From the NCBI GenBank assembly GCA_019057385.1, contig JAHQJS010000004.1, positions 416,001 through 480,000 on the forward strand: a stretch of DNA of 64,000 bases. The letters are read 5' to 3'. The notes beneath the pieces are model-generated. The model had not been told where the DNA came from, did no database searches, and saw only the letters and a list, made by a program, of their open reading frames with translations. Numbering within the stretch: the stretch's first letter is position 1; every line of letters starts with the position of its first letter. Source of the DNA: Candidatus Borrarchaeum weybense (GTDB lineage Archaea; Asgardarchaeota; Sifarchaeia; Borrarchaeales; Borrarchaeaceae). The translations under genes were made by a program, and so were the position numbers. Below are positions 1,430 to 46,850 of the stretch, piece by piece.

Positions 1430-3133
1430 ATGATCACAATGCCACATATATTGGGATGGTATTCGGTATGGGAACGGTTGGGACGAGCAGGTTATCTAAA
1501 GTTATTTGCTTTTCAGTATAAGGCGGTTTATGCATTCAGGGATGGAAAAGATATATTTGTAAAAGCACCAACGGGTGCAGGAAAGACGCTCATTCCGCTG
1601 ATTTGTGCTACTCTTATTCTTGGAATGAAAAAACGATGTGTGTTCCTTGTACCGACCAGGCGGTTGATCGACCAGACCTATGACCGACTCAAAGACTGGT
1701 TTGAAAGTATACCACATTGCGAAGAAGAGTACAATATCGTAACCTTAACAGGAGATAATCGACCTTCTTACAAAGAAATACGAGAAGTGCACATAATCAT
1801 AACAACCTACGAGTCTTTTAATGGTATGTTGGCAAAACATTACAGACATTCACTTTTGAACAATGTCGGACTTGTGGCGATTGATGAAATGCATTATGTC
1901 GGGGATGTAGAGAGAGGGACGCATCTTGAGGAGGCTATTGTCAAAGCGAAGTTGTGGTTGCGACCTCGTCCTCAGATGATCTACCTTGCGGCTACGTTAG
2001 GGAATATACAAGAAATTGGGGAGTGGTTAAAAGCTACAGTCATCGAAACAAAAAAACGCAAGTCGGAAATCATTGTTGGATCACCCATTAACGTCTATAA
2101 TGAGGATGAACGGTTAAAGGTTATTGCTCAGTTAGTTAAAGAAACGGATCAGATAGAGATAGGGGCAAAGGAAACTGACAAAAGATGTGTGCTGGTTTTT
2201 TGTAGATCGAGATGGCATGCCGAAACTAGAGCACAGAATCTTGCAAAAATGTTGGAGAAGGAAGGATACAAAAAAACTGTTTCATATAGCCACAGAGGAC
2301 TGAAAACTGTGGAACGACAAAAGCGGATGAAAGCGTTTCAAAAGGGTGAAATTGACGTGTTGTTCACCACAACAGAATACAAGGAGGGTGTGAATGCTCC
2401 AGTCCTGCGGGTCATCATAGCTGATACCGAGGTGTTCAATTCTCAGGACATTGAACAGATGATCGGAAGGGCAGCCCGTCCGCGATTTTTTCAGATCGGA
2501 TATGCAAATCTGATTATTCAGGGAAACATAGAAGACATTCTCGAAAATAAAAGAATAAGGATAGAGGAAGGGGTAGCCCATTTTGAGGAATCACCATTGG
2601 AAAGTTGGGCAAAATATCATTTGAACGAGATCATCCTCAACAGGTTAGCTAAGGGTGCCTGTTCGATAGGTCGGCTTATTAGGTATCTCAAAGAGTTTTA
2701 TTTTTACTTCGAGGATACAACTCAGATAAAGAATTGGTATAAAGTTATGGAAAACGCAATAAGTGAACGAGAGATGTTTATGCTTACCGCAGACAACTAT
2801 ATGATACTCTTCTCTTTAATAGATAATGACGATAGATACAATGCGAAGGATAAGAAGAACTTTCACTCTTTCGTAACTGAATTCCTGATGCGTAGTCGCA
2901 AGTGCGCTGAAACACAAAAAAGAAGGCGTAAAAGGGATAAAAAACTCGTACTTGAAAAGAAGATGGCTCTTGTTTTCTTGAAAGAATACTTAACTAATAA
3001 ACTAAAACGTTATGATGCTGAGCTAAAAACTCAAGTTAAAACTCATCTAGGCTACCTCATCCATATTGGGTTTCTTAAAAAACAGGAACTGGAATCTAAG
3101 GCAATAAAGGAAGGATTAGGAAGTGCAGTCTAA
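1430..3133 (+). CDS. SF2 Ski2/Hel308-like helicase, N-terminal part (RecA1/RecA2 plus start of winged helix)
   Basis: Q-motif LFAFQ, Walker A APTGAGKT, VPTRRL, DEMH, LAATL, LVFCRSR, TTEYKEGVNAP, QMIGRAAR. Confidence 0.92.
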   Translation: MITMPHILGWYSVWERLGRAGYLKLFAFQYKAVYAFRDGKDIFVKAPTGAGKTLIPLICATLILGMKKRCVFLVPTRRLIDQTYDRLKDWFESIPHCEEEYNIVTLTGDNRPSYKEIREVHIIITTYESFNGMLAKHYRHSLLNNVGLVAIDEMHYVGDVERGTHLEEAIVKAKLWLRPRPQMIYLAATLGNIQEIGEWLKATVIETKKRKSEIIVGSPINVYNEDERLKVIAQLVKETDQIEIGAKETDKRCVLVFCRSRWHAETRAQNLAKMLEKEGYKKTVSYSHRGLKTVERQKRMKAFQKGEIDVLFTTTEYKEGVNAPVLRVIIADTEVFNSQDIEQMIGRAARPRFFQIGYANLIIQGNIEDILENKRIRIEEGVAHFEESPLESWAKYHLNEIILNRLAKGACSIGRLIRYLKEFYFYFEDTTQIKNWYKVMENAISEREMFMLTADNYMILFSLIDNDDRYNAKDKKNFHSFVTEFLMRSRKCAETQKRRRKRDKKLVLEKKMALVFLKEYLTNKLKRYDAELKTQVKTHLGYLIHIGFLKKQELESKAIKEGLGSAV

Positions 3134-5468
3134 GGTAATAAAGAACGGGAAATATAGCGTAACAGAAACTGGACAATGGGCAAGTCAATTTCTATTAAAG
3201 ACCAGCGATGCAAAGAAGATCCACAAATTTCTCCAGACACAGTATTTTTATTCAGAAGACGACGCTTGTAAAAAACTGGCGACTCTTATAAGTGAGAGTG
3301 TCCGTGAGAACGATAATTCGCGATATAGAGCGCAACAATATGAGTTGTTCATATTATCTTTAGTAGAAGGGTTCGATATTGATGAGGCAGCGGAAAACGC
3401 TCGGATGCGACAAGGGGATGCCGAAGGGTGCAGAAGAACTGCCGCGTGGATTGCAGAGGCAGTTAATGCCTACGTTGGAAAGAACATTCCGAAGATCGCG
3501 GAAATGGCAGAAGGAATTAGTGAAGCGCTTACCGTAGATAAAAGAAGGGAAATAGGACCTGGGGTGCGAAGTTATGCAAAAGAGAAACCCTCGTCATATC
3601 CAGGTATTCAAAAAACAATTTGTTCTGTTATTAATCAATTAGGAATTTGCACATATGATGCGATCCATAACATAATTACTGACAAATATGGTGAGTCAGT
3701 AGATCGAACGACAACAATTTGGAACATCCTTGATTTAAGGGCGAAAGACGAAGTTATAACTTTATCAAGAGGCAAGGGAATAGGGCGTCCCGTAATCCAT
3801 GTGTGTAAAAAGGGAATGAATGTACCTGAACATATGCGCAAGACTTGCGGATCCTGTGTATTTTACATATCCTGTGACGATGATGAAAAAGAACGAGACA
3901 ATCAAAGATTTATCTGTGAACTGCGAAGGGAATGCAACAAGCGCGTGGAAAAAAATATTGTAAGCACGTACGTTACGAGCAATATGGGTGCGTGTAAATA
4001 TCATAATTCGTCTCAAGAGCGAAAAAGACGAAGTTTTCGTAAATTTGAGAGGACAGACACAGGCAAACCTATCTGCCAAATTTGTAAATCGGATGCCGTT
4101 AAGGAACCAACCGCTTATGATCACTACACCATATGTTCCAATTGTAATTCACAGTATTACTACCTTTGCGACGGCAGGTTCAGTGTTCAGCCAGGTGTCA
4201 GAGATTTATTACAGCAAGCATTAGAAGAAATCTATGGAAAGTCCGTTAAACCTGTTAAAAGGTGTGCAAAACTAGAGGGTTCTTTAGATCGGCAATACGT
4301 TGAATTAACCATTAAGAAAGGGGATGCAGCTCATATTGACCAAAATAAACTCATTTATATTCCAAAAGAGGAGAAGACACGTTCTTATTTGTTAGATGCC
4401 ATTGAATGTGTTAGAGTGCTTGACGGTGCATATATCACGCCTTATGTATATGAGAAACTCGATGACAGAATTTTATCTGGCAAGAATGTGAATAGACCGC
4501 CAAACGCTTCCTTTGAAGGGTATATAAACATACCTGACGTGCACAATCAACTGAAAGAACGTATACAAGAAATTCGAGAGCAAGAAGTTGGTTTGGCATT
4601 GGCGAGGATACTTATAATGGGTAAGAAAATGAATAATGCAATTCTTACTCTGCAAGCTGGTGAGGAGGGATTACTGTGCCCAGTAGATGCCAGCAGGTTA
4701 TTTTTCAAACAAATGAATGTTGTCGCCCATACTATCATGTATTGGACGGGAAATAGAGAAAATCTGCTCAGTTTCGAGGCGGTTGGCGAACGATACGCAT
4801 GGAAAGCAATTAAACGCGCCTTGAAGGATACATCTATGCGCTTTGAAAATCGTACACAGGAACGATATATCTTTTCGGTTCCCTATATCGGCAAAGTTAG
4901 GGCACGATCTCCCTTTAGTGCAGGACTTAATGCCATTTATCGCCGTGTCCTCGAAATATGTAGAGAGGTGCTTTGCGAAAAAGGATTCTCTTGGTTTCCT
5001 GGCGAACTCGTACTCCATTATAGAAGAAGAAAAGACCAACAAATCCCCATTGGAACAGCTCTTGATTTCCGAGAGTTGTTTTTGGCACTGTTCAGATTCA
5101 CTTATATGAAAGCGTGCAAGAAGGATCAAATTAGGAATACAGATTTTGTACTGTCAAGTACATCTCGCGAGGAAAAAGTATATACCCTTACATACGAGGC
5201 AGAGGATAAAGTTAGAGACTTAATCGAAAGCGTCATGAATAAAGAGGTATATTATCTTGGAAAACAGATGTCACTTTGGAAAGCAATGAAAGAATGCGCA
5301 CGTTCACTTCGCAACTTTTTATTAGAGGGATCTAAATTTATTCCTTTTGTCTGCGCATTAAATGAGGAGCAATTTAAAAAGATTTTAAAGACTTTCCAAA
5401 ATATAGAGAGGTTTTGTGGACCTTCAGGTAAAGGACCTCCTGTTTCAATGTTTGATATCTTATCATAA
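3123..5468 (+). CDS. cas1: Multidomain Cas1-family integrase: Hel308 C-terminal region + wHTH + Zn fingers + Cas1 domain (~4290-5350)
   Basis: Hel308 tail (SVTETGQWASQFLL; GDAEGCRRTAAWIAEA); CxxC pairs; Cas1 motifs in order: ALARILIMGKKMN, LLSFEAVGERYAW, RFENR, PFSAGLNAIY, VLH, ALDFRELF, terminal ARSLRNFL..FIPF. Confidence 0.85.
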   Translation: MQSKVIKNGKYSVTETGQWASQFLLKTSDAKKIHKFLQTQYFYSEDDACKKLATLISESVRENDNSRYRAQQYELFILSLVEGFDIDEAAENARMRQGDAEGCRRTAAWIAEAVNAYVGKNIPKIAEMAEGISEALTVDKRREIGPGVRSYAKEKPSSYPGIQKTICSVINQLGICTYDAIHNIITDKYGESVDRTTTIWNILDLRAKDEVITLSRGKGIGRPVIHVCKKGMNVPEHMRKTCGSCVFYISCDDDEKERDNQRFICELRRECNKRVEKNIVSTYVTSNMGACKYHNSSQERKRRSFRKFERTDTGKPICQICKSDAVKEPTAYDHYTICSNCNSQYYYLCDGRFSVQPGVRDLLQQALEEIYGKSVKPVKRCAKLEGSLDRQYVELTIKKGDAAHIDQNKLIYIPKEEKTRSYLLDAIECVRVLDGAYITPYVYEKLDDRILSGKNVNRPPNASFEGYINIPDVHNQLKERIQEIREQEVGLALARILIMGKKMNNAILTLQAGEEGLLCPVDASRLFFKQMNVVAHTIMYWTGNRENLLSFEAVGERYAWKAIKRALKDTSMRFENRTQERYIFSVPYIGKVRARSPFSAGLNAIYRRVLEICREVLCEKGFSWFPGELVLHYRRRKDQQIPIGTALDFRELFLALFRFTYMKACKKDQIRNTDFVLSSTSREEKVYTLTYEAEDKVRDLIESVMNKEVYYLGKQMSLWKAMKECARSLRNFLLEGSKFIPFVCALNEEQFKKILKTFQNIERFCGPSGKGPPVSMFDILS

Positions 5469-5703: not shown

Positions 5704-5750
5704 ATCCGTTATACAAAAAGCGTTATTTAAAAACCGCAATGCTTATATAC
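5704..5750 (+). promoter_or_regulatory. Archaeal promoter (BRE + TATA), copy 1, upstream of cas7-like gene
   Basis: TACAAAAAGCGTTATTTAAAAACCGCAATGCTT, identical in copy 2 (6771-6817). Confidence 0.7.
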
Positions 5751-5782: not shown

Positions 5783-6598
5783 ATGAAAAAAACTAAGAAA
5801 CAGATCAATGTTCATGCCTTCACTCCTATTGCGAAACCGATCAATACCTCCATACAGAAAAATTCCACTATGCTTCTTTTGGGAGAAATTCCGTATGTCA
5901 ATGGATCGAAAACATTTACTACCAAGCTGTATTATCTCAAAGGTTTGCGAGGAATGCTGAGGCATGCCTGCATGGACTTAGCACGTGCTTACGATATCGA
6001 GGTCTGTCACAGTTCTGAAAAGACTGAACTCAGGGATGGGACAAAACTCGTCTCGCAAGGGTTTCATCCGCTGGGTGCCTGTGATCCTCCCTGCATTCTG
6101 AGGCGTATCTTCGGTACGTTCAGAGAAGACTCCCGCATTAGTGTTTCCGCCGATCCCATCACTTCTATCAGCCATAAGGAATACATTACCGAAGTTCCCG
6201 TCCAAAAAGTTCATATCGCCAGTGAAAATAGGATTGCTCTTTCCTATGACAGGATCCCCATACAAGACTTTAGACAATCCTATTTTTCAGGTTACTTTAC
6301 CTTTTCCATTGATGCCACCCAATTGACCGATGATGAGATTAAATTTCTCTTGGAATCGCTGTTGCATATAGAGTACTATGGTGGTGGCAGAAGTGCGGGC
6401 TATGGTCATGTCAAAATTCTAAATGTTGAATTGCTGCACATAACAATCGAAAGAAAATTTGAATCTGAGAACGGAACTCTGAAAGTCGTTGAAGAGGAAA
6501 AAGTAACTCCGCTAGAACTTGATACTCTCGATGACTGGACGGAAAGTATATCCCTATCTGCACTGACACAAGAACTAGAATTGATGGATGGGGAGTGA
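5783..6598 (+). CDS. cas7: Cas7-group RAMP protein
   Basis: N-terminal strand + TPI; LKGLRGMLRHA; Cys cluster VCH..GACDPPCILRRIFG; ENRIAL; Gly-rich loop YGGGRSAGYGHVKI. Confidence 0.85.
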   Translation: MKKTKKQINVHAFTPIAKPINTSIQKNSTMLLLGEIPYVNGSKTFTTKLYYLKGLRGMLRHACMDLARAYDIEVCHSSEKTELRDGTKLVSQGFHPLGACDPPCILRRIFGTFREDSRISVSADPITSISHKEYITEVPVQKVHIASENRIALSYDRIPIQDFRQSYFSGYFTFSIDATQLTDDEIKFLLESLLHIEYYGGGRSAGYGHVKILNVELLHITIERKFESENGTLKVVEEEKVTPLELDTLDDWTESISLSALTQELELMDGE

Positions 6599-6648
6599 AA
6601 AAGATGTTGAATAACCTGCAATACTCGTTATTTCCTTTTTTCTCATCT

Positions 6649-6770
6649 AAGACGGAATGCTTCCCTTGTAGCGAGGGGAGCACGTTCTTGTGCATGAGAC
6701 TGAACCATCTTGGAGGTCTGACGCCTCGTCTCATGGGGATGGATGACAGGCAGGGGACGAGAAAAGTCAC
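6649..6770 (+). ncRNA. Putative ~120-nt structured RNA/element, copy 1
   Basis: Invariant blocks shared with 7758-7875, separated by hairpins that differ in sequence but keep pairing; strand inferred from the copy 2 promoter. Confidence 0.65.
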
Positions 6771-6817
6771 ATCCGATTTACAAAAAGCGTTATTTAAAAA
6801 CCGCAATGCTTCTATAC
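6771..6817 (+). promoter_or_regulatory. Archaeal promoter, copy 2, upstream of RAMP-HD gene
   Basis: Near-identical to 5704-5750; followed by a perfect 9-bp hairpin GCCCGTTAT/ATAACGGGC at 6827-6851. Confidence 0.7.
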
Positions 6818-6875
6818 AATTAATATGCCCGTTATAACATTGATAACGGGCTAAAATCTATAAATAGGGATAAAG

Positions 6876-7691
6876 ATGACACAAAATTGGTTTAAATTGA
6901 TAGGAATCACCAAAACGCCTGTGATCACAAGAAGAAGGCGGTTTTTCTATAAATTAGGAGTAATCTCCATTCATGGTCGCCCCAGAGTCTTCGGTAAACT
7001 CACAAAAGGGGAAAGACGCCCACCTAAGACGTATAGGGCGTGGTATGGTGACGTCGAGTTTATCGTGCCAGAAGACAGACTTGACGACGCGCTCGCCATT
7101 GATTGTTTCGGGAGTTTCACTAATGAAGGCATGGGACAAATGCAATGGAAAGAAGCGAAAAAACTCTACAAAAAACCCCTCTATACTCCGAGAAAAGCCA
7201 AGATCAGAAAAATGCTTCCGAAACTTTCAGAGACGCAAGAAAAACTATTAATAGGTTTTTTACTTCATGATTTTGTCCATACCGAAAAACACAACAGCAA
7301 AATCTATACCGAGGTTAATATATATGATGGATTTGTCTATGAATTGGCTAAAAATCATCATAATTACACGATAGACGATAGAGAAATCCCTTTGCTCTGT
7401 ACTCTTCAATATTACGATAGGCTTTCTTCAAGAATCTCAAGAAAATTCCGCTTTTCTGCGTCCTCACGCTATCGCGTCACTGAAATAGAAAAAATAGATT
7501 TCGACGAACTTAAACAGGAGATCGAAACGCGCCAATATTCCCTATACGCGCTTTATAGTTATGTCTATAAGTCTCAGACACTCAATAAAATCAACGAAGC
7601 ACTCAAATTCGGTTTTTCATCGCTAAAAAATCATCTCTTATTAATGGTTAACCTGTATATTGATGACTCACAAGAGGCTATATACTTATGA
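6876..7691 (+). CDS. Minimal RAMP (Cas5-like) fused to Cas10-type permuted HD nuclease
   Basis: FKLIGITKTPV start, G-loop FGSFTNEGMGQMQW, then LLHDFVH, KNHH, YYDRLSS and C-terminal SLKNHLL. Confidence 0.75.
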   Translation: MTQNWFKLIGITKTPVITRRRRFFYKLGVISIHGRPRVFGKLTKGERRPPKTYRAWYGDVEFIVPEDRLDDALAIDCFGSFTNEGMGQMQWKEAKKLYKKPLYTPRKAKIRKMLPKLSETQEKLLIGFLLHDFVHTEKHNSKIYTEVNIYDGFVYELAKNHHNYTIDDREIPLLCTLQYYDRLSSRISRKFRFSASSRYRVTEIEKIDFDELKQEIETRQYSLYALYSYVYKSQTLNKINEALKFGFSSLKNHLLLMVNLYIDDSQEAIYL

Positions 7692-7757
7692 CACGAGAAA
7701 CTCTCGTTTTGAATAGTGGCGTTTATATAGGTCTTTGCAAGCGAATATACAAGTTAC

Positions 7758-7875
7758 AAGGCGGAATGTTCCTCGCATCACGCGGAGAACACGTTCTTGT
7801 GCATGAGACTGAACCTGAGAGGTCTGACGCCTCGTAGAAGGGAATGAATGACAGGTAGGGGACGAGAAAGGTCAA
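7758..7875 (+). ncRNA. Putative ~120-nt structured RNA/element, copy 2
   Basis: Homologous to 6649-6770; TATA box TTTATATA at 7722-7729 just upstream. Confidence 0.7.
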
Positions 7876-7935
7876 AAAACAAGTGGTGTATGCGATAAAG
7901 TGGACGTGTACCAAAAAGTAATATATAAACGATGG

Positions 7936-7957
7936 AGGGCTCATTTGAGCCCTTTTT
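7936..7957 (+). terminator. Hairpin followed by T-tract
   Basis: AGGGCTC-ATTT-GAGCCCT-TTTT. Confidence 0.5.
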
Positions 7958-8023
7958 ATCTATTTAAAAACTGAGTTTTCCCGCCGATTTGGTCAAAAAT
8001 ATAAAACTGATATTTATGATAAA

Positions 8024-8311
8024 GTGGATGTGTATGAAGGTGGAACTTGTCAATATTGCAAGGCAATCGTCAAAACCGCGCTACAATCTCTACACAAGAA
8101 AGGAGACATTTCGCTAGTCAAAGATATGCAAGTTATTGTTGGTAAAAACCCTTCCGAGCCATATTCGAAATCAAGTTTAGATTTTATTGTAGGCGATTGC
8201 GCATGTGAATCGACAGATTACGAGGGTATTGAAATTCCTGGTTGTCCACCCTTTGACGCTTTCGTAAAAATCAGAAAAGCAGTGCACAACAATGTTTCTG
8301 AGAAAACATAA
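8024..8311 (+). pseudogene. Probable C-terminal fragment of a DUF362-type Fe-S protein
   Basis: GTCQYC..VIVGK..IVGDC..IPGCPP pattern, normally the tail of a longer protein; N-terminal part absent. Confidence 0.5.
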
Positions 8312-9172: not shown

Positions 9173-9251
9173 AATGATTATGTTCTTCAATATCACGACA
9201 GAAGTTCCTCAAGTATTTCAGGAAAATTCAGATTTTCTGCGCCATTATTCA

Positions 9252-9330
9252 GAGAACACTTTCTTGTGAATTAAACTGAACTTAAAAGGTCTAACGCCTT
9301 ATAGAGGTTCATAATAAAACGAAAAGTTAA
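9252..9330 (+). repeat. Decayed third copy of the 120-nt element
   Basis: GAGAACACTTTCTTGTGAATTAAACTGAACTTAAAAGGTCTAACGCCTT aligns without gaps to 7785-7833. Confidence 0.75.
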
Positions 9331-13507: not shown

Positions 13508-15373
13508 TTATAGGCCATATTTCGACTTTATACTGGCGGGTACGCTACCGTCATCGTTCCAGCCGCGGGTCTTGTAGTACATCGGCTTTAGTTTAGCTAA
13601 TGGAACCGTGTTTCCTTTCGATGGTCCCTCTGGAATAGGCTCTTCGAGAATCCTTGTTGGTAAGCTATCATTGTCCGCCGTAAATCCTTCGCGGTAGTTG
13701 AACATCCTTTCGAGGTTCCAGATGCGTGCGCCAATAGAGTCAAATTCTTCAGCTGTTATATCCCAACCGGTTATTGGGGCTAGAATATTTGCGAATTCTT
13801 GGGAACCCATTGAGAATGTAACGAACTGGCAGACAAGTGAGCTGTCCATTGCCGCTACGAAGTCCTGAAACGCGATCAGCATGTCAATTGATTTTTGACC
13901 TGGGTCGAATCGAGGCAATTGTTCAGGTGCGCCCAAGATTTCTGGATTGATCATGTATGCTCTTAAGTGGCAAGCACCTCTGTTGGAGGTAGCATAACCT
14001 AATGCATGTGCTTTGGCACCACGACCGTCATACGCGGGCATGCTTTGTCCTTTGACTGTCATCGCGAATTTATCAGCACCTTTACCCCATTTCTTTGCAG
14101 ACATCTCTTCACCATCGCCCAGAATTGCACCGATTCCTTCGACCTTACCTATCATTTCAGCAACCTGTACTATTGCTTCTGTATTGCCAAATGTGAGGTC
14201 AATTCCACCAGTGTCTTCTTTGGTGATGATTCCTTTTTCATAGCATTCCATAGCGAAGGCACAAGCTGTACCCGCTTGGATTGCGTCTAAACCGTATTTA
14301 TTGCAAATGTGATGCGCTGTTAAGACGTAATCAATGTCGTCTACTCCACAGTCTGCTCCCCAACTCCAGGTTGTTTCGTATTCAGGCCCTTCACATACAG
14401 TTCCGGCGTATGGTCCTTTTTCGATCTTACTCCATCGACCACACATGATTCTGCAGCCCTTACAACCGACATTCTTGATCAATCTGTTTTCCTTGATGTA
14501 TTCACCAGAAGTGACTTCAGCACCTGGAAATACATCCATTTGGAAGTTATGTGTTGGATAAATCCCTGCACCGTTGACGATGTTAACCAGCAGCGCTGTA
14601 CCAAGTGTGTAGAGTCCACCTCCGATCTTTGTGACGTCTCCAGCCTGCATTACCTCGTCTTCGTTCTTCTTAACAGCTGCCTTGAATGCAGCTTCATCAG
14701 CCATTGGAATCCTCTGTTTTCCTCGTGCCACTAAAGCTTTTAGGTTCTTTGAACCCATAACAGCTCCGTGTCCACCTCTTCCAGCGGCACGGTAGAATCT
14801 GTTCATAATAGCCGCAATGCGTTTCATATTTTCTCCGGGTGGTCCGATGCTTGCCACACCAATTGGGTTGCGCACTAATTTTTCGATGTCCTTTCCTACT
14901 GAAGATGGATCTAAATCTGCAAGGATTGCTGTTTCCGTCGCATGAACATCCATACCCCAGTACTTTGAAGCATCTTTCAGTTCAATTTTTCCGTCTTCGC
15001 ACAAAATCATTGTTGGTTTAGCGGCTTTTCCTGTAATTACTAAATAATCGAATCCTGCAGCTTTGAGTGCGTGAGCGTAGTCTCCTCCAGAGTGCGAGTC
15101 AGAAACTGTACCAGTGAGGGGACTCTTAGTAACAGTACAGAATCGCCCAGAACTTGGCGCGCCTGTACCAGTTAGCGGACCTGTTAGAACGATGAGGATG
15201 TTGTCTGGTGAAAGTGGGTCAGTTCCTGGCTTCAATCGGTCATAAAGAATTTTAACACCGAGTCCTCTACCACCAAGCCATTTCCTGGCCATAGCCATGT
15301 CGACATCTTTGATTTCAATGCTTCCAGTAGTCAGATTAATATCTGCCCATTTGCCCATATATCCATTTGCCAT
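13508..15373 (-). CDS. aor: Tungsten aldehyde:ferredoxin oxidoreductase, paralog 1
   Basis: GRGLG, KSPLT, GRGGHGAVMGSKNLKA, CxxCxxxC, EGPEYET, RGACH. Confidence 0.95.
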   Translation of the reverse strand: MANGYMGKWADINLTTGSIEIKDVDMAMARKWLGGRGLGVKILYDRLKPGTDPLSPDNILIVLTGPLTGTGAPSSGRFCTVTKSPLTGTVSDSHSGGDYAHALKAAGFDYLVITGKAAKPTMILCEDGKIELKDASKYWGMDVHATETAILADLDPSSVGKDIEKLVRNPIGVASIGPPGENMKRIAAIMNRFYRAAGRGGHGAVMGSKNLKALVARGKQRIPMADEAAFKAAVKKNEDEVMQAGDVTKIGGGLYTLGTALLVNIVNGAGIYPTHNFQMDVFPGAEVTSGEYIKENRLIKNVGCKGCRIMCGRWSKIEKGPYAGTVCEGPEYETTWSWGADCGVDDIDYVLTAHHICNKYGLDAIQAGTACAFAMECYEKGIITKEDTGGIDLTFGNTEAIVQVAEMIGKVEGIGAILGDGEEMSAKKWGKGADKFAMTVKGQSMPAYDGRGAKAHALGYATSNRGACHLRAYMINPEILGAPEQLPRFDPGQKSIDMLIAFQDFVAAMDSSLVCQFVTFSMGSQEFANILAPITGWDITAEEFDSIGARIWNLERMFNYREGFTADNDSLPTRILEEPIPEGPSKGNTVPLAKLKPMYYKTRGWNDDGSVPASIKSKYGL

Positions 15374-16377: not shown

Positions 16378-16501
16378 TCATTCTAATAAGTAAGTAGTCG
16401 ATACGAGTCATTTAAACTTCTTCAAACCCTTTTTTGTTTTTTAATCTAAGAATTGTTAAGAAAAACAGGTAAAAAAAAAGAGGAAAGGAACTTTTTCGTA
16501 T

Positions 16502-18370
16502 TTATGCGATGCCGTATCTTTTCTGTGTTTCTTCAGTCGGCTTGCCTTCATTATCATATCCACGAGTCTCGTAGTACATCGGCAACATTTTATCGATTGG
16601 CACGGTATTTCCTTTTGATGGTCCTTCAGGCATAGGATCCTCAAGCATTCTGGTTGCTAAGGTGTCGTCCTTTCTGCCAAATCCTTCTCGTGCATTAAAC
16701 ATTCGTTCAAGATTCCAAATGCGTGCGCCCACCTCATCGACCATATCGGCAGTCCAATCCCAGCCAGTGGCTGGTTTTAGTAAGTTTGCAAACTCCTGAT
16801 TACCCATAGCGAAGGAAACAAACAGACAAATCAGACTGGAGTCTAGAAGTGCGGTGAAGTTCTGGAAGGCAATTAACATATCGATCGTCTTTTGGCCTGG
16901 GTCGAACCGCGGCAATTGCTCAGGTGCACCTAAGATTTCTGGATTGATCATGTATGCACGTATGTGGCATGCGCCTCTATTAGATGTGGCATATGCAAGT
17001 CCGTGTCCTTTTGACCCTCTTGGGTCATAAGCTGGCATGCTTTGTCCTTTTGTCACCATCGCGTACTTTTCAGCACCTTTACCCCATTTCTGTGCAGCAA
17101 CTATTTCACCATCTGCAAGGATTTTACCGATTCCTTCCACTTTACCTATTTGTTCGGCGACTTTTATCATAGCCTCAGCATTTCCGAATTTGAGTTCGAT
17201 ACCACCCGTGTCCTCTGTTGTGATAATGCCTTTCTCAAAGCACTCCATAGCGAATGCCGTCGTCGTACCCGCTTGAATCGCATCGAGCCCGTATAAATTA
17301 CACAAGTGATGTGCTGTCATACAATAGTCAATATCGTCTACGCCACAGTCAGCGCCCCACGCCCACATGTTCTCGTATTCCGGCCCTTCCATTTCAGTTC
17401 CAGCAAAAGGTCCTTTTTCGATTTTAGACCATCGTCCACACATAATTCTACAGCCTTTGCAACCAACAGGCTTGATTAATCGATTTTCCTTAAGATATTC
17501 ACCGGAAGTAACCTCAGCCCCTTCAAATACACCTGTCTGGAAGTTATGTGTTGGATAAATCCCAGCACCATTTATAATATTAACAAGCAGGGCCGTACCA
17601 AGCGTATTAAGTCCTCCTCCTGGCTTCGTTACATCGCTTACTTTCATTGCTTCATCTTCATTCTTTTTGACAGCTGCCCTGTATGCCTCCTCGTCATATA
17701 AGGAGACTTTTTGTTTTCCTCTTGCCACTATAGCCTTTAGGTTCTTTGAACCCATAACAGCCCCATGTCCACCTCTTCCAACGGCACGATAGAATCGGTT
17801 CATTATAGCCGCTAATCTCTTCATATTTTCTCCAGGTGGTCCAATACTTGCCACACCAATTGAATTGCGTACTAATTGTTCCATGTCCTTTCCTGCTGAA
17901 GATGGATCTAATTCTTCAAGAATCATTTTTTCTGTTTCGAAAACATCTTTGCCCCAAAGGGCTGATGCATCTTTAAACTCCACTTTTCCATCATCTAAGA
18001 AGATCCAAGTCGGTTTATCAGCTTTGCCAGTGATGACGAGCCAATCAAACCCCGCAGCTTTAATTGCGTGACCGAAATCTCCACCGCAGTGCGAATCGTG
18101 TACTGTGTTTGTTAGTGGACTTTTTGTGACACTACAGAATCGTCCAGAACTCGGAGCACCTGTACCTGTTATTGGACCCGTTGCAATAACGATGATGTTG
18201 TCTGGTGAGAATGGGTCTGTTCCTGGCTTCAATCGGTCATAAAGAATTTTAACACCGACACCTCGTCCTCCGACCCAGGTTTTGGTAAAACTCATGTCAA
18301 CATCTTTAATTTCAGCACTCTTCTTGTTTAGGTCGATATCGACCCATTTACCCATGTATCCATTTGCCAT
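16502..18370 (-). CDS. aor: Tungsten aldehyde:ferredoxin oxidoreductase, paralog 2
   Basis: Same motifs as 13508-15373; collinear and highly similar. Confidence 0.95.
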   Translation of the reverse strand: MANGYMGKWVDIDLNKKSAEIKDVDMSFTKTWVGGRGVGVKILYDRLKPGTDPFSPDNIIVIATGPITGTGAPSSGRFCSVTKSPLTNTVHDSHCGGDFGHAIKAAGFDWLVITGKADKPTWIFLDDGKVEFKDASALWGKDVFETEKMILEELDPSSAGKDMEQLVRNSIGVASIGPPGENMKRLAAIMNRFYRAVGRGGHGAVMGSKNLKAIVARGKQKVSLYDEEAYRAAVKKNEDEAMKVSDVTKPGGGLNTLGTALLVNIINGAGIYPTHNFQTGVFEGAEVTSGEYLKENRLIKPVGCKGCRIMCGRWSKIEKGPFAGTEMEGPEYENMWAWGADCGVDDIDYCMTAHHLCNLYGLDAIQAGTTTAFAMECFEKGIITTEDTGGIELKFGNAEAMIKVAEQIGKVEGIGKILADGEIVAAQKWGKGAEKYAMVTKGQSMPAYDPRGSKGHGLAYATSNRGACHIRAYMINPEILGAPEQLPRFDPGQKTIDMLIAFQNFTALLDSSLICLFVSFAMGNQEFANLLKPATGWDWTADMVDEVGARIWNLERMFNAREGFGRKDDTLATRMLEDPMPEGPSKGNTVPIDKMLPMYYETRGYDNEGKPTEETQKRYGIA

Positions 18371-18430
18371 TTTTCACATTTCCTCCTATTCGAATATATT
18401 TTTTCACATTTCCTCCTACTTGAATCTATT
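18371..18430. repeat. 30-bp tandem duplication containing the aor ribosome-binding site
   Basis: TTTTCACATTTCCTCCTA(T/C)T(C/T)GAAT(A/C)TATT twice. Confidence 0.85.
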
Positions 18431-46433: not shown

Positions 46434-46809
46434 TTATATGGTGTCTTGTCTGTTTTCAAATTTGGAGGATATTGCTGGGCTATTAACTTTTAAACTGCTA
46501 TAAAAACTTTAAGATAAAAAACTCAGCATTATTAGTTTTGTTTAGAAAAGAATTTCCTGACAACTTTTCCTCTTCACCTCTCCCCATGTTAGTACATCCG
46601 TCTTTTCCATGATTCCAACTTTGATAAGATATGTTGAATTGGGAATATTAACTCAGTGTTTTTATTCATTGCAGAATTGTAAGATCACTCAATTTGGATT
46701 CGGTTGCATGACACATTGTCGCTTTAAGTAGAGAAAAAGCACATTTTTCCAGTTATAGCATAATATATTTCCCTATCGGTAGTATCCGTGGATAAAATCG
46801 CTTAAAAAC

Positions 46810-46850
46810 GGGAATGAATGACAGATAGAGGGAAGAGAAAGGTCATAAAC
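46810..46850 (+). repeat. Decayed 3' fragment of the 120-nt element
   Basis: GGGAATGAATGACAGATAGAGGGAAGAGAAAGGTCA versus GGGAATGAATGACAGGTAGGGGACGAGAAAGGTCA at 7840-7874. Confidence 0.7.

Follow-up and report, generated by a model that had tools for sequence, protein, structure and literature searches.

We analysed a stretch of 64,000 nucleotides (nt) from Candidatus Borrarchaeum weybense (contig JAHQJS010000004.1, positions 416,001 to 480,000; the whole stretch is called the window, and positions without a contig handle are counted from its first letter), in which a structured element of ~120 nt, here called the scaffold, stands directly 3' of each of two RAMP genes. By its gene content the surrounding cassette is an ARAMP system, the array-less CRISPR-derived system of Asgard archaea, which is said to go back to Makarova et al. 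2020 in the CRISPR J. We consider it fairly probable that the element serves as scaffold in a non-CRISPR guide RNA of ARAMP cassettes, comparable to the 5' handle of class 1 CRISPR RNAs (crRNAs) and enlarged to ~120 nt, and that ARAMP, which has been thought RNA-less, probably has an RNA partner. Published descriptions present ARAMP as an array-less Asgard system with diverged Cas7- and Cas5-like RAMPs, a nuclease and a distinct Cas1; they call its mechanism enigmatic and mention no RNA partner (PMC8730458, PMC12669027), and the original description may note conserved non-coding elements. As read from the genomes compared here, what is new relative to these descriptions is the predicted scaffold RNA family, its tails, its position at the right end of an element and the evidence for mobility.

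The two complete scaffolds of the window, copies A and B, share the same orientation and lie 1109 nt apart with one gene between them. An earlier note on this DNA had pointed to invariant blocks separated by two hairpins of differing sequence, and all of these were found; one invariant block of 26 nt is found at 6681, at 7790 and nowhere else in the window, whereas shuffled sequences are expected to hold none, so that its repetition is far beyond chance. CUGA and AUGA motifs are conserved across the copies. The impression that the element belongs to no recognised RNA family also stood, as an Rfam scan of the window gave no match at gathering thresholds. A search of region 6500-8100 against the 4227 families of Rfam release 15, with E values up to 10, returned chance-level matches only (E of at least 0.39), none of which overlapped either copy, and at relaxed E values no snoRNA family matched over either scaffold.

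To define the distribution of the family we used the source genome (G000, 4.18 Mb) and five other sampled genomes of the same class (G001-G005). The source genome contains 25 strong copies by nhmmer and 27 by a covariance model of the scaffold, R1. Matches to R1 occur in all six genomes of the class, with 3-33 copies in each of the other five and ~100 copies in total, and no copy was found in any of 55 other sampled genomes of the phylum; among the Asgard genomes sampled, the covariance-model search thus limits the family to Ca. Borrarchaeum and its kin. In G000, 21 of the 25 strong copies adjoin genes or gene fragments for the RAMP protein or for gene 2, a putative RAMP-HD protein (our count, from nhmmer and paralog lists). 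The window holds a third, degenerate copy 3' of a ZIP transporter gene, and the orthologous site in G004 (locus L112) carries a full scaffold scoring 70 bits with R1. A weak partial match was also seen at 46808-46848 (nhmmer E 0.086).

The fold was assessed on 76 distinct scaffold copies aligned to R1, with slid pairing partners and 500 shuffles as controls. Paired cells reach 93%, compared with 37-52% when the partners are slid. Changes on both sides of a pair were counted in 256 cells versus 98 in shuffles, none of the 500 shuffles being as high. The label P1 names two things in this work, the first hairpin of the scaffold and the promoter region of the RAMP gene at 5704-5750, and we therefore write hairpin P1 and P1 region throughout. 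In hairpin P1, nine of ten pairs show changes on both sides, strong covariation that bears out the claim that this hairpin differs in sequence and still pairs. The invariant GAGGU...GCCUC hairpin displays one G-C/A-U switch, and a long-range helix, CGUUCU/GGGACG, is paired in 98% of cases with changes from G-U to A-U or G-C. This register fits better than the closing helix TTCTTGT/ACGAGAA suggested in the earlier note, the central pair of which is broken in 19 of 25 copies without covariation. For the second variable stem, CCA/TGG versus ACCT/AGGT, the earlier suggestion is right in outline, although the stem varies in length and aligns poorly. Numerous G-U pairs are possible on the + strand only, which is the sense strand of the cassette genes. 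On these comparative grounds the scaffold is confirmed as an uncatalogued family of structured RNA, ~120 nt in length.

We regard the sequence directly 3' of copy A (tail A, or guide A) as our strongest evidence for a guide function. Tail A matches the P1 region in seven of the eight loci that have an A copy. Within a lineage the two sequences give local scores of 27-41; across lineages the scores are 9-18, three lineages having diverged from one another beyond alignment. Counting guide positions from the first base after the scaffold, the mismatches to the P1 region fall at 6, 8 and 42 in the lineage of the window, at 6, 12, 18, 24 and 36 in phase and 28 off phase in the second lineage, and at 6, 12, 24, 30, 36, 42 and 48 in phase and 15 and 49 off phase in the third. 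When the three lineages are pooled, 14 of 23 sixth positions are mismatched versus 4 of 128 others (Fisher p=1e-10), and none of the other mismatch phases in tail A is enriched. In the structures of Cascade and Csm/Cmr, each Cas7 thumb flips out every sixth guide base, so that this base need not pair. Codon wobble cannot explain the pattern because the DNA of tail A is non-coding. At the level of comparative analysis, the pattern shows long-term selection for pairing in 5+1-nt steps, and it implies a tail that acts as a guide bound by Cas7, with the boundary between handle and guide at the end of the scaffold. Pairing broken every sixth nt, the hallmark of a Cas7-bound (class 1) guide, is therefore seen by comparison in three lineages, which supports the original proposal of a scaffold RNA for the Cas7-like RAMP and RAMP-HD proteins with the flanking sequence as guide.

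The P1 region holds a TATA-like box, TTATTTAAAAA, ~48 nt before the ATG of the RAMP gene. As most of this proposed target lies upstream of the likely transcription start and the guide is in top-strand sense, the target should be DNA. Guide A contains a TATA-like box as well, probably driving gene 2. The hairpin that closes guide A is kept 3' of guide A in other loci and is absent after the P1 region.

The tail of copy B (tail B, or guide B) points to a different place, the insertion site of the element. A 28.7-kb island (C4:395305 to ~424017), with the window cassette at its right end, interrupts a DUF362 gene, and this gene is uninterrupted in three sister genomes, G004, G002 and G003, which thus show the empty site. 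The left end of the island, outside the window at C4:395305-395618, supplies a replacement DUF362 3' end that is 80% identical. Guide B matches 8018-8034 at 16 of 17 positions, and its segment 7881-7914 agrees with the uninterrupted gene of G002 at 27 of 34 positions (aligned by eye, across the insertion point), the target in the window being split after guide position 18. The same break recurs at C3:65k, a locus at the beginning of pyrD, where 16 of 16 positions match the left flank 32 kb away and 24 of 25 the right flank, and where the sole internal mismatch of the tail is at position 24; since the left junction is identical in G004, G003 and G001, no empty site is shown for C3:65k. For two more terminal tails the matching sequence is intact and lies 330 or 530 nt downstream; one of these targets is inside ftsY, ~115-150 nt past the start codon, with the junction upstream of the gene. 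Altogether, matches to DNA 140-530 nt downstream were obtained for four terminal tails, with scores of 22, 16, 15 and 14, compared with 12 for the best of ~550 non-trivial cross-locus tail comparisons, which served as control. In the B tails, mismatches occur at 9 of 23 sixth positions versus 11 of 117 others (p=0.001).

The uninterrupted DUF362 gene of G004 is 98.6% identical to the displaced fragment in the window but has island-type sequence in the ~21-nt target site. This mosaic patch (L112) suggests past recombination or escape at the target.

The layout of the copies resembles that of small transcription units. A TTTATA-type box is found ~26 nt before the conserved start ACAAGGCGG in terminal and solo copies, at other loci and in other genomes. 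The order of scaffold, 40-50-nt tail and hairpin is seen for both copies of the window and at several other loci, and hairpins equivalent to the one at 7934-7960 follow the tails of other copies with a fixed guide. The suggestion that flanking sequence acts as guide is supported for copy B by this arrangement of TATA box and terminator hairpin in terminal copies, together with the match to the empty insertion site in sister genomes. We infer that RNA B has its own TATA box as promoter and that RNA A is transcribed with or after the RAMP messenger RNA (mRNA).

Among the proteins of the cassette are two that are expected of ARAMP, a diverged Cas7-like RAMP and a distinct Cas1 homolog, in one locus of an Asgard host. 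No short repeat-spacer array is present among the repeats of the window, whose repeat unit is ~120 nt versus 24-48 nt for the direct repeats of CRISPR arrays. The RAMP protein has 10 paralogs in G000 (64-71% identity), and about ten paralogous pairs of RAMP and gene 2 are found there (63-71% protein identity). The 781-amino-acid (aa) protein with the Cas1 domain is matched by NCBIfam TIGR00287 (cas1) at 7e-07, under the curated cut-off. Helicase and Cas1 are fused into one protein of 1323-1363 aa in at least 5 paralogous loci. In the window they are two overlapping open reading frames (ORFs) in different frames (1430-3133 and 3123-5468), and this split pair may be inactivated or expressed as two chains.

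Gene 2, with homologs in 36 of 400 genomes of the phylum, retains conserved motifs of HD type (LLHDFVHTE.H, NHHNY and YYD). The protein of the window gave no Pfam match, and Pfam HD recognises the family weakly, in four of 11 paralogs and with a best E of 0.012. An AlphaFold model of the protein has a mean predicted local distance difference test (pLDDT) value of 55; its C-terminal half is unreliable, and the N-terminal ferredoxin-like fold of ~100 residues is of moderate confidence. Foldseek with this model against the PDB returned nothing at E <=0.001, Cas5, Cas6 and Csm4 chains appearing at non-significant E values, and a PDB sequence-profile search with gene 2 gave no match. A model of the complex between RAMP protein and gene 2 scored 0.73, a value reached by 58 of 80 solved complexes and by two of 110 mismatched pairs, whereas the best control scored 0.00. 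The runs showed at least 81% contact agreement and a partner pLDDT of at least 53, and the interface is formed by gene-2 residues 6-95. The model supports binding of the RAMP protein by the predicted N-terminal domain of gene 2, although the score may reflect likeness to, or memory of, solved complexes of the Csm3-Csm4 type.

The scaffold is also a boundary. At 12 independent insertions, identified by comparing other genomes with empty sites in G000, homology to the host starts ~6 nt after the scaffold, which makes the scaffold the right end of the element. The inserts end at the same point on the right and differ in their leftward reach, which ranges from 82 nt, ~205 nt and ~565 nt up to the 28.7-kb island; the 82-nt insert is a 5'-truncated scaffold joined at a GCATG microhomology. 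G005 contains many units of ~285 nt, in which 150 nt with a TATA box precede the scaffold and the flanks are unique. At these insertions the tail is plain host DNA, as for the omega-RNAs of TnpB and IscB. Tandem arrays of scaffolds also occur (L127, at G004:C9:1289-3021; L081; L090), with irregular spacing of 25-125 nt. Some of these arrays have a TATA box in each interval and resemble a crude repeat-spacer array. A listing of sequencing runs gave 13 metagenomes, all from DNA. Contig pieces from four DNA runs show extra depth over both scaffolds of the window; at 7874-7878, the point of divergence of other copies, they have loose ends, and they contain no empty-site or circle joint.

The earlier note had offered a folded DNA attachment site as an alternative, and this idea survives in a different sense, in that the scaffold forms the right-hand terminus of the insert at the 12 sites. 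Taken to its full extent, it would mean that the scaffold acts only as DNA, as a structured right terminus recognised by the helicase-Cas1 protein and likened to the ends of IS200/IS605 and the 3' hairpin of Helitrons, its transcript being incidental. We consider this unlikely. It accounts well for the exact right boundary of scaffold plus ~6 nt, for the fixed right and variable left extents and for the tandem arrays, and the lack of target-site duplications and the microhomology-joined, 5'-truncated copy fit a single-strand or rolling-circle-like transposition with a helicase. It leaves unexplained the internal copy A, the conserved outward TATA box and the terminator after the tail, the sixth-position mismatches between tail A and the P1 region, and the linkage to RNA-binding RAMP proteins; in addition, a number of the near-invariant G-U pairs would turn into weak G-T pairs if the element acted as DNA. 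The roles of DNA end and guide RNA may coexist, as in IS605.

A second alternative arises from the DNA just beyond the boundary. In 5-6 copies the ATG of a long host ORF stands exactly at flank position 7 and the scaffold before it ends in GGTGAT, which we take to be a Shine-Dalgarno-like sequence at ideal spacing; this arrangement suggests that transcripts run through the scaffold into the flank. From these sequences the element seems to supply a promoter, a leader and a ribosome-binding site to the gene downstream of its landing site. Copies that abut an ATG are those at L083, L087, L081, L090 and L101, and the genes include acyl-CoA dehydrogenase, eS19-like and GlmM-like genes. A G000 copy at C4:1263003 has the host ATG at flank position 4, after GGTGAA.

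On this basis the scaffold could be a cis-acting mRNA element, namely a stabiliser or processing site in the 3' untranslated region of the RAMP and gene-2 messages and, facing outward, a 5' leader through which the host gene would regain its expression. The position of both window copies directly 3' of genes, the start codons 6 nt past the scaffold and the outward promoter, which would drive the host gene, are all in its favour. We nevertheless find it improbable, as a leader fits only the copies that abut a start codon, while many terminal copies face convergent gene 3' ends or meet a terminator within 60 nt; the matches between tails and targets and their 6-nt phase stay unexplained, and a 120-nt fold so conserved, with protein-sized invariant loops, exceeds what a stabiliser needs. 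A purely DNA terminus and a cis-acting leader are the main rivals of the guide-RNA scaffold, and neither explains the sixth-position pattern.

It is similarly doubtful that the RNA guides a stationary regulatory or defence system unrelated to mobility, in which the tails would regulate the cassette promoter and host genes nearby and the islands would move by homologous recombination of their flanks. In favour of this reading, tail A is directed at the promoter of its own cassette, and one B tail has its target within the neighbouring host gene ftsY and not at the junction. The homologous host-gene 3' end carried by the island could support an exchange by recombination, and the target site in G004 is locally mosaic. 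Against it, the boundary is precisely scaffold plus ~6 nt at 12 independent insertions, miniature promoter-scaffold units with unique flanks are many, and the tandem arrays identify the end of the scaffold as the boundary that moves.

Several observations weigh against a guide-RNA scaffold in ARAMP as we propose it. Guide A overlaps the likely gene-2 promoter, so that its likeness to the P1 region could partly reflect a shared promoter function. The 6-nt phase of the B tails is partly confounded with codon wobble because their targets are coding. The geometry of the B targets is not uniform, as the target is split at 18/19 in two loci (the window and C3:65k) and intact inside ftsY, ~150 nt past the junction. 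For about half of the terminal copies no local target was detected: ~8 terminal copies of G000 gave no above-chance tail match, either in the 1.2 kb downstream or in the 70 kb upstream, and the guides of the copies in L079 and L109 did not match the empty sites in G000. No target-site duplication was seen at the insertion junctions examined, unlike known Cas1 integration. Further points are the split of the helicase-Cas1 gene of the window into two frames, the weak recognition of the HD domain and the poor structure model of gene 2. Finally, the transcription, the ends and the processing of the RNA are all inferred.

If the scaffold is nonetheless that of a guide RNA, its workings can be sketched as follows. 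The Cas5-like N-terminal domain of gene 2 and a filament of ~6-8 RAMP subunits would bind scaffold and tail, and the tail would pair with DNA in 5+1-nt steps. RNA A would load the complex onto the cassette's own promoter, leading to autoregulation, while RNA B would mark the chromosomal site of the element. In the latter role, RNA B could address insertion by helicase-Cas1, possibly at a boundary between guide segments (junctions were seen after guide positions 6 and 18), or the HD nuclease could cut the empty site, after which the element would be copied back, as for TnpB and its omega-RNA. Miniature copies consisting of promoter and scaffold would be non-autonomous derivatives. It is tempting to speculate that ARAMP is an unrecognised class of RNA-guided mobile elements, in which a Cas7-like filament and a Cas5-HD protein, loaded with one long-scaffold guide transcribed from the right end, read the chromosomal site in 6-nt steps and either direct the helicase-Cas1 fusion to insert the element or cut the empty site, while a second guide autoregulates the cassette; we hold this wider view only tentatively.

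The arrangement proposed here has partial counterparts in several known systems. With class 1 crRNAs (Cascade, Csm/Cmr) it shares the order of handle, guide and hairpin, Cas7-like and putative Cas5-like partners and the tolerance of mismatches at sixth positions. In contrast to these, the scaffold is a structured ~120 nt rather than an 8-nt handle, there is neither a repeat-spacer array nor Cas6, and single guides of 40-50 nt with their own promoter target the element's own promoter and insertion site, not invaders. The omega-RNAs of IS200/IS605 TnpB and of IscB likewise have a structured scaffold of ~100-150 nt that faces outward at the right end of the element and takes the flank as guide; they too are multicopy, have miniature non-autonomous derivatives and make no target-site duplication. 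Here, however, the partners would be multi-subunit RAMPs with HD rather than a single RuvC effector, helicase-Cas1 stands in place of TnpA, some copies have a fixed internal guide and a terminator, and there is no sequence or Rfam relationship. Protein-family scans found no RuvC nuclease of the TnpB/IscB family in the cassette or the island.

Homing crRNAs of Tn7-like elements (I-F3, I-B, V-K) are similar in that an element-borne guide imperfectly matches the adjacent attachment site, and a second guide with a partial match to the system's own promoter recalls CreR/CreA and Cas9 tracr-L. Unlike the Tn7-like systems, the element has no TnsB, TnsC or TniQ and no CRISPR repeats, and the distance between target and junction and their geometry vary. 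Casposons share with it a Cas1 homolog on an archaeal mobile element. They differ in that here the island has no family B polymerase, no terminal inverted repeats were seen, no 14-15-bp duplication was found at the junctions examined and Cas1 is fused to a superfamily 2 (SF2) helicase.

We also searched around 25 distant gene-2 homologs in other Asgard families with R1, filters off, and obtained no match. In another Asgard family, a different element of ~125 nt, R2, lies ~20 nt after the gene-2 (RAMP-HD) homolog. Among five copies (L154, L158, L163, L164, L167), 11 of 27 pairs of R2 are compensatory, and the element occurs in 14 of 22 genomes with 1-7 copies each. The tails of R2 have no significant target within 1.5 kb. 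R1 and R2 are unrelated and occupy the same position relative to gene 2, and from this second, putative scaffold it would seem that the principle holds for ARAMP in general.

In the current CRISPR classification, ARAMP and HRAMP, its counterpart in haloarchaea, stand as array-less derivatives whose mechanism is unexplained. If true, a scaffold-plus-guide RNA would supply the missing specificity determinant of ARAMP, and one non-CRISPR RNA would suffice to program class 1 RAMP effectors, much as omega-RNA programs TnpB and IscB. A Cas1 homolog would then be tied to an RNA-addressed mobile element, which would bear on the origin of CRISPR from a Cas1 transposon, a RAMP effector and repeats; the tandem arrays of scaffolds and tails, arising by insertion beside resident copies, would model how Cas1, RAMP effectors and repeat-spacer arrays met. 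Such RNAs could also give a compact, array-free, multi-subunit DNA-binding system with guides of ~48 nt.

Table. Features of the ARAMP cassette and its surroundings, in window positions.
Feature	Position	Strand	Basis or remark
Hel308/DEAD-type SF2 helicase	1430-3133	+	Pfam DEAD, ResIII, Helicase_C; NCBIfam Hel308-like
781-aa protein, C-terminal Cas1 domain (residues ~405-750)	3123-5468	+	PADLOC Cas1 2.4e-10
P1 region, promoter-like, 5' of RAMP gene, proposed DNA target of guide A	5704-5750	+	44/47 identical to 6771-6817
Csm3/Cas7-like RAMP protein, 271 aa	5783-6598	+	Pfam RAMPs 4e-06 (above cut-off); PADLOC Csm3 1.3e-10
Scaffold copy A (internal)	6649-6770 (start 6649 or 6653)	+	Covariance model R1, 128.9 bits
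Guide A, tail directly 3' of scaffold A	6771-6817	+	44/47 match to P1 region
Palindromic hairpin closing guide A (CCCGTTAT...ATAACGGG)	6827-6851	+	Conserved after guide A elsewhere
Gene 2, RAMP-HD, 271 aa, predicted ferredoxin-like (RAMP/Cas5-like) N-terminal domain and diverged HD	6876-7691	+	Motifs, structure model
Hairpin and T-run after gene 2, likely terminator	7693-7711	+	Read from sequence
TATA box TTTATATA (GGCG before), putative promoter of RNA B	7722-7729	+	26 nt before conserved 5' start ACAAGGCGG
Scaffold copy B (terminal, outward-facing, right end of island)	7753-7875 (start 7753 or 7758)	+	R1, 131.4 bits
Guide B	7876-7914	+	7881-7893 copies host gene left of insertion point; 7894-7914 right of it
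Terminator-like hairpin and T-run ending the RNA B unit	7934-7960	+	Sequence
Right island junction and right half of target site	8013-8038	+	Homology to uninterrupted gene of G004, G002 and G003 resumes
Displaced original 3' end of DUF362 host gene	8024-8311	+	Homology
Scaffold relic, third copy, degenerate, 3' of ZIP transporter gene	9250-9302	+	nhmmer E 1.6e-4

The island has further cargo to the left of the window (C4:396149-412107), which includes a TIR protein, an RNase III with a dsRBD, a 776-aa Piwi/Argonaute protein, an HD/HD_assoc_2 protein, an AAA ATPase and a 1063-aa SMC-like ATPase, a defence-like set. No tyrosine or serine recombinase, DDE transposase or other integrase was recognised among the island genes. 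Elsewhere in the window, two tandem aldehyde:ferredoxin oxidoreductase paralogs (13508-15373 and ~16500-18400) lie 2997 nt apart with 73-80% DNA identity and share repeated upstream motifs (TTTTTCACATTTCCTCCTA).

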